Positions 48,863 through 48,962 of a stretch of DNA of 64,000 bases are shown one piece after another; positions within the stretch are counted from its first letter, which is position 1; each line of letters starts with the position of its first letter. This DNA is from Escherichia coli (GTDB lineage: Bacteria; Pseudomonadota; Gammaproteobacteria; Enterobacterales; Enterobacteriaceae): assembly GCF_003334815.1 (NCBI RefSeq), contig NZ_QOWO01000007.1; one strand, given 5' to 3'. A program made the translations under genes and the position numbers. A model generated the notes under the pieces. It did no database searches and was not told the origin of the DNA. It was given only the letters and a program-made list of their open reading frames with translations.

Positions 48863-48870
48863 CGTATCGT

Positions 48871-48902
48871 CTGGCCCTGGTGGGGTAAAGCGCCAGGGCC
48901 AG
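48871..48902 (+). terminator. hairpin downstream of paaK (no U-tract)
   Basis: CTGGCCCTGG-12 nt loop-CCAGGGCCAG, embedded in a longer imperfect palindrome. Confidence 0.4.
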
Positions 48903-48962
48903 AAGTCGATACGACCTGTGCTATGATTCATAAATCACAACAATAACAACAGACTGAAGCGA

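Follow-up and report, generated by a model that had tools for sequence, protein, structure and literature searches.

The 64,000-nt stretch of Escherichia coli DNA analysed here (the window; contig NZ_QOWO01000007.1 of assembly GCF_003334815.1) holds the junction between paaK, the final gene of paaABCDEFGHIJK, and the repressor gene paaX. The paaK-paaX region was 100% identical to that of E. coli K-12 MG1655 by blastn, and the RefSeq annotation of MG1655 was mapped onto the window (Table 1); the paaK and paaX assignments of a first-pass annotation, made from the sequence alone, agreed with it. The two genes are separated by a spacer of 100 bp, and an interrupted GC-rich palindrome begins at the first base after the paaK stop codon (TGA, 48860-48862). 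A minus-strand CDS of 21 aa at 50589-50654 is also present in the RefSeq annotation.

Table 1. Features at and around the paaK-paaX junction, in window coordinates.
Feature	Coordinates	Strand	Description or basis
paaK CDS	47549..48862	+	phenylacetate-CoA ligase; RefSeq MG1655 annotation mapped to window
Published RNA 3' ends	48859..48865	-	Adams 2021 Supplementary file 1 (PMC7815308), strings mapped to window
Interrupted GC-rich palindrome	48863..48913	either	RNA hairpin, 20-bp interrupted stem
Outer stem	48863-48869 : 48907-48913		CGTATCG : CGATACG, 7 bp
Inner stem	48870-48882 : 48891-48903		13 bp
Loop	48883-48890		8 nt
Bulge	48904-48906		AGT, 3 nt
Extended -10 of paaXY promoter Px	48919..48927	+	TGCTATGAT; conservation and published start site
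Left half of Px PaaX operator	48924-48929	+	TGATTC; conserved in most loci, overlaps -10
Right half of Px PaaX operator	48956..48961	+	GAAGCG (K-12); 26 nt past TGATTC, 1 nt before paaX ATG
paaX CDS	48963..49913	+	repressor; RefSeq annotation
paaY CDS	49895-50485		RefSeq annotation

The palindrome folds as an RNA hairpin composed, from base to loop, of a 7-bp outer stem, a bulge of 3 nt, a 13-bp inner stem and a loop of 8 nt, and 11 of the 13 inner base pairs form a perfect inverted repeat (TCTGGCCCTGG/CCAGGGCCAGA). Folding energies were -39.8 kcal/mol (z = -6.1) for plus-strand RNA and -35.0 kcal/mol (z = -6.55) for minus-strand RNA; for both strands, all 200 dinucleotide shuffles folded less stably, and within a 211-nt context the hairpin was still the dominant local structure. 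A U-rich tract after the stem was absent on both strands (tails ACCUGUGCUAUG on plus and UCAGGCACCAAC on minus), a terminator scan of 48500-49300 returned no terminator-like sites, and an Rfam search at E <= 10 returned chance matches to eukaryotic families and nothing else. The interrupted stem of roughly 20 bp without a U-tract described in the first-pass annotation was borne out by sequence and folding, and its location between the paaK stop and the paaX promoter agreed with the RefSeq genes and the conserved Px module. Of the span given there (48863-48915), the start held and the end did not, as the structure stops at 48913 and the last two bases are unpaired.

The hairpin ends 5 nt before the extended -10 of Px. 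A sigma-70 consensus scan of 48500-49300 found no -35/-10 promoter, and Px was then identified as an extended -10 promoter because of its conservation (consensus TGnTATGAT, at a constant 44 nt upstream of the paaX ATG in 55 of 61 motif-bearing loci from other species) and a published start site. The latter, 1463509, belongs to a paaX-paaY unit in Supplementary Data 2 of the SMRT-Cappable-seq study (PMC6131387) and corresponds to an A at window 48933, 6 nt past the -10 and 30 nt before the paaX ATG; the offset between MG1655 and window coordinates was taken from Term-seq sequence strings. No match to a -35 was found for Px, and GCCAGA from the right arm of the hairpin sits at that position; Px is therefore without a -35.

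Overlapping the -10 is a TGATTC, which had been reported at about 48925 as resembling a PaaX half-site. A lone TGATTC is uninformative (38 in the window against 41 expected), so the support for a half-site comes from its conservation and from the presence of a partner half-site, and by sequence the proposal stood up. PaaX operators have the consensus TGATTC(N27)GAATCA, and Px is repressed by PaaX via steric hindrance of RNA polymerase (both from the review PMC9493321). Judged by sequence, an inverted repeat of the form TGATTC-N26/27-GAATCA overlaps the paa promoter at Px and would constitute a PaaX operator. Its right half reads GAATCA in most other genera and GAATCG in most other E. coli, and the K-12 version agrees with GAATCA at 4 of 6 positions. 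Window position 48959 is G in K-12 and T in 13 of 17 sampled E. coli sequences; the K-12 G looks like a derived allele and should weaken the operator half-site. The PaaX site on the Pa side (39299-39335) reads TGATTC-N27-GAAT against N26 at Px, a difference of 1 bp in half-site spacing.

Hairpin copies were sought by blastn with 53-nt and 71-nt queries in 5426 complete E. coli genomes. Matches were found at 3167 places in 3166 paa-carrying genomes (median one per genome), all at paaK-paaX, and the remaining 2260 genomes gave no match even when a second blastn was relaxed to E <= 10. The second copy that the first-pass annotation had proposed looking for is thus not present beyond paaK-paaX in the 5426 genomes. 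Within the 64-kb window the inner palindrome pattern was observed once, against 0 expected by chance. Direct reading of the sequence and a pattern search found no GTAG, CTAC or REP core (GCCGGATG...TTATCCGGCCTAC type) in the hairpin. As an extragenic imperfect palindrome that forms a stable stem-loop downstream of a gene, the hairpin has the general form of a REP. REPs are present in hundreds of copies in E. coli K-12; the hairpin is single-copy and therefore not a REP. Membership of the REP/BIME family was rejected on this ground, REPs having many copies per genome, and on the absence of the consensus. A canonical REP, GCCGGATGCGACGCTGGCCGCGTCTTATCCGGCCTCC, lies at 19417-19453 of the same window and looks quite unlike the paaK-paaX hairpin.

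Variation within E. coli was assessed in 17 sequences, with site counts taken from eight of these with flanks. Among the eight, variable sites made up 15/51 of the hairpin, 22/99 of paaK fourfold-degenerate positions and 2/49 of the Px module; the hairpin sequence changes at about the synonymous rate, and the promoter/operator module is nearly invariant. Changes in the hairpin cluster in the left arm and the loop, plus the outer stem in one divergent Escherichia. The right arm was invariant in 16 of the 17 sequences (exception 48893 C>T, allele L093), and the asymmetry between the arms (four variable sites on the left, 0-1 on the right, in 11 nt) was not statistically significant. Substitutions at 48863, 48866, 48875 and 48893 keep a G-U pair on the plus strand, and those at 48870, 48878 and 48879 break pairs, 48878 T>G being carried by 4/17 sequences. 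When selection at the RNA level was tested in the 17 sequences, 4 of 6 stem transitions were G-U-compatible on the plus strand, a proportion not distinguishable from the 50% expected under neutrality. All E. coli alleles fold at -27 kcal/mol or better. Given the neutral-like substitution pattern and pair-breaking alleles that are not rare, positive evidence of structural selection within the species is absent. E. coli O145:H28 12E115 (L088) retains an intact hairpin, Px and paaX beside an annotated truncated pseudogene fragment of paaK.

The spacer from paaK stop to paaX ATG was compared across 80 PaaX-relative loci from species-representative genomes, mostly Enterobacteriaceae. Its final ~47 nt were strongly conserved, with a sharp onset of conservation 2-3 nt upstream of the extended -10, and upstream of the Px module nothing was conserved: spacer lengths ranged from 16 to about 1700 nt, and sequences between genera were unrelated. 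Hairpins of different genera can be aligned only with their loops as the common centre, and a covariation score obtained in that way would be circular. Spacers folded with z <= -2 in 47 of 59 cases, perfect stems of 8 bp or longer were present in 37 of 61 (39 beat 95% of shuffles), and a T-rich tail was found in 10 of 61 relatives only. Hairpins of the type CCCTCTCC...GGAGAGGG, single or in nested/tandem arrays, were found in Enterobacter, Lelliottia, Leclercia, Silvania, Yokenella and Pseudocitrobacter, and in several loci directly after paaY as well. Canonical REPs occupied the spacer in Citrobacter portucalensis, Kluyvera georgiana and Citrobacter sp. R56, and GTAGCCCGG-type repeats in Klebsiella and Kluyvera; other spacers carried species-specific stems, and the 16-nt spacer of Rosenbergiella carried no hairpin. 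From these comparisons, the spacer position would either favour palindromes or merely tolerate them, with the E. coli hairpin as one lineage-specific occupant. The Pseudocitrobacter faecalis locus (L036:2144-2453) contains about seven tandem CCCTCTCCC...GGGAGAGGG units over 310 nt (-213 kcal/mol), and several loci of Buttiauxella, Cedecea and others (L061, L064-L066, L071, L075 and L081) have an insert of 0.8-1.75 kb between paaK and paaX. Three records look mislabelled or contaminated, namely a contig labelled Chryseobacterium sp. 18061 that bears an enterobacterial paa locus, a 414-bp 'Pseudoalteromonas phenolica' contig with 100% identity to E. coli paaX, and a 298-kb linear 'plasmid', pZYS9073-A, that bears paaK-paaX (record ids L034, L087 and L007).

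Plus-strand transcripts across the hairpin were taken from published data. Supplementary Data 2 and 3 of the SMRT-Cappable-seq study list units b1398/b1399 and b1398/b1399/b1400 with start 1461405; a paaK-only (b1398) unit is not listed, in both media paaK occurs in one transcriptional context, and the supplementary tables, which describe uninduced cells, place no termination site at 14634xx/14635xx (PMC6131387). Since paaK-paaX(-paaY) units are listed without a termination site, polymerase reads through the hairpin. The start at 1461405 corresponds to window 46829, inside paaJ, and feeds the paaK-paaX(-paaY) transcripts in uninduced cells; a promoter-like CTGACA(46795-46800)-17-GAGAAT(46818-46823) lies 6 nt upstream of it. 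The suggestion that the hairpin insulates paaX from read-through did not survive as a strong effect, as full-length units cross it in uninduced cells. In such cells the hairpin is not an effective insulator, and partial attenuation is compatible with the listing, which gives no read counts. The first-pass annotation had itself held that a continuous paaK-paaX transcript at undiminished level would speak against its proposal; continuous transcripts exist in uninduced cells, which bears out half of that condition.

No plus-strand 3' end at the hairpin appears in Adams 2021 (PMC7815308), the paa operon being off in all datasets used, and nothing is listed at 14634xx-14639xx in the Cappable-seq supplement. 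Text searches of the literature for a terminator or antisense RNA at paaX/paaK returned nothing relevant. Microarray induction ratios were 13.8x for paaK, 4.8x for paaX and 2.9x for paaY (PMC4640556), a step-down that fits either partial termination or separate control of Px. Of the hallmarks of an intrinsic terminator, the hairpin has the GC-rich stem-loop and lacks the U-rich tract, and published data, from uninduced cells with low expression, show no sense-strand ends there in vivo. The real terminator of the region is likely the structure after paaY at 50516-50548, a 13-bp AT-flanked hairpin with a T-run that would serve paaXY and is possibly bidirectional.

On the minus strand, Term-seq 3' ends classed as antisense to paaK were reported at 1463435 (LB, OD 0.4) and 1463441 (M63, OD 0.4) (Adams 2021; PMC7815308). 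The Term-seq strings (50 nt, 3' end, 10 nt; layout checked against the sgrS entry) of both ends are the reverse complement of the hairpin and place the ends at window 48859, 4 nt beyond the stem base on this strand, and window 48865, 2 nt inside it. Counts were about 26,000-28,000, barely above the apparent floor of 23,469 for the strand, and the minus-strand RNA is therefore rare. The supplements of Adams 2021, with the Rho termination table among them, list no Rho termination region at 14633xx-14636xx. A search of the minus strand for a sigma-70-like promoter gave none within 48500-49300 and a single weak consensus match elsewhere, at 50189-50162 inside paaY.

Taken together, the hairpin is an ordinary element, neither a transcription stop nor a REP repeat. 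On balance we lean towards its being a single-copy, Escherichia-specific, U-less stem-loop that acts like a known class of structures protecting RNA 3' ends. This class, defined by Dar & Sorek 2018, consists of stable stem-loops with low U and a mild downstream excess of C over G; its members protect RNA from PNPase and RNase II, and REPs account for 24% of it (PMC6061677). The paaK-paaX hairpin is an energetically stable stem-loop that is followed by little U and preceded by no A-tract, and a precise steady-state 3' end lies beside its stem on the minus strand only (Adams 2021). The C/G ratio over the 80 nt downstream was 1.45 (plus) and 1.62 (minus) against 0.91 window-wide, a mild excess that may fit the class, for which no threshold is defined. 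Because the stem-loop, its flanks and the minus-strand 3' end match, the hairpin would work in the manner of a REP stabiliser without being a REP. The REP-like stabiliser of the first-pass annotation accordingly kept its mechanism, the reading with the most support (Term-seq 3' ends at the stem base, on the minus strand), and lost its family membership.

In the mechanism we propose, the hairpin would fill the sole unconstrained stretch of the 100-bp spacer: since Px is an extended -10 promoter without a -35, the bases up to about 48916 would be under no constraint and could accommodate a palindrome. RNA polymerase would not be stopped by the hairpin, and the RNA would end farther downstream, via Rho or otherwise. 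PNPase and RNase II would then trim it 3' to 5' back to the stem base, leaving a stable, protected 3' end. The protective behaviour is seen in published Term-seq only for the rare minus-strand RNA, whose ends we infer to have been made by exonuclease trimming and not by termination; the same protection would extend to the paaA-K mRNA in induced cells.

A serious rival, possible though in our view doubtful, is that the hairpin is a neutral relic: the spacer upstream of a -35-less promoter would tolerate, and repeatedly gain, REP/BIME or CCCTCTCC palindromes, the E. coli hairpin would be a decayed orphan or a local palindrome under no selection, and end protection would be incidental. It is compatible with the physical behaviour of the protective stem-loop, and the two differ on selection alone. 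It would account for the range of spacer lengths and unrelated sequences between genera, for the canonical REPs (GCCGGATGGCGGCG...TTATCCGGCCTAC) or tandem CCCTCTCCC/GGGAGAGGG units in several species, for the recurrence of the CCCTCTCC type after paaY and for the hairpin-free spacer of Rosenbergiella; the near-synonymous rate of change and pair-breaking alleles in E. coli, and the similarity of its GGCCCT...AGGGCC to the Silvania core GGCCCTCTCC...GGAGGGCC, point the same way. Against neutrality, nearly all Enterobacteriaceae examined have a strong hairpin despite complete sequence turnover, every E. coli allele retains at least -27 kcal/mol, and at least one compensatory change was seen among close species pairs (C-G to U-A in the loop-closing pair, Citrobacter NCU1 versus Awk 4).

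That the hairpin pauses or stops a fraction of Pa transcription, by an intrinsic route or with Rho/NusG, and so uncouples paaXY dosage from the induced operon, is improbable. Its position at an operon boundary, the microarray step-down from paaK through paaX to paaY (PMC4640556), the 3-5 T after the hairpin in Klebsiella, Raoultella, Leclercia and Pluralibacter and the G-poor stretch downstream on the plus strand would suit a partial terminator. However, separate Px regulation explains the step-down equally, T-rich tails are confined to 10/61 relatives, the U-tract and any match in the terminator scan are lacking, and full-length paaK-paaX(-paaY) transcripts are reported with no paaK-only unit or termination site (PMC6131387); moreover, paaX translation begins 50 nt past the hairpin, which leaves little naked RNA for Rho. 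Two further readings, very unlikely even when taken jointly, are that a discrete leftward antisense RNA crosses the paaX start codon, PaaX operator and Px and modulates paaX, with the hairpin as its 3' terminator or stabiliser, or that a structural boundary hairpin at paaK/Px has been actively maintained across Enterobacteriaceae despite complete sequence turnover. If the antisense reading were true, the minus-strand Term-seq ends would belong to a regulatory asRNA and not to trimmed pervasive transcription. Least probable of all is a role at the DNA level, the 11-bp perfect inverted repeat with its 12-bp spacer acting as the operator of a dimeric regulator or as a cruciform that modulates Px. 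The perfection of the repeat over 11 bp fits such a site, as does a right arm that overlaps the Px -35 position and is invariant in 16/17 sampled E. coli. The left arm varies freely, however, 48893 C>T alters the right arm in one allele, the asymmetry between the arms falls short of significance, and blastn of 5426 genomes found no other copy of the motif in E. coli. Unlike the adjoining PaaX operator, the hairpin sequence is conserved in no other genus, and a protein-operator role is unlikely because of this lack of conservation outside Escherichia.

Read as a protective stem-loop, the hairpin matters little beyond annotation. It completes the layout of the K-12 junction (stop codon, 51-nt unique hairpin, -35-less extended -10 with overlapping PaaX operator, start site) and adds one further non-REP, U-less stem-loop marking RNA 3' ends, which is of relevance to engineering of the paa operon or modelling of its mRNA stability. 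Leakiness of the junction means that upstream promoters can drive paaXY as well. In comparative terms, -35-less promoters leave room for palindromes, and a strict promoter/operator lies here beside a hypervariable, palindrome-filled slot.

Among known systems, the hairpin resembles intrinsic terminators as a GC-rich hairpin closing an operon, but it differs from them in having no U-tract and in being passed by published full-length reads. With REP/BIME elements it shares an extragenic position abutting a stop codon, the form of an imperfect GC-rich palindrome of 35-50 nt and an expected stabilisation of upstream mRNA, and true REPs fill the same spacer in Citrobacter portucalensis, Kluyvera georgiana and others; unlike them, the E. 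coli hairpin is single-copy and is without the consensus and terminal GTAG/CTAC. Compared with the single hairpins of 9-14 bp that relatives have at the same position, its 20-bp stem looks long. With the class of Dar & Sorek the hairpin would share Rho dependence, exonuclease trimming and a sense-strand paaK end. It has the stable GC-rich stem-loop of that class, flanked by neither a preceding A-tract nor a following U-tract, and steady-state 3' ends a few nt from the stem base (here on the minus strand); its mild downstream excess of C over G may fit as well, and it is, as are most members, not a REP.
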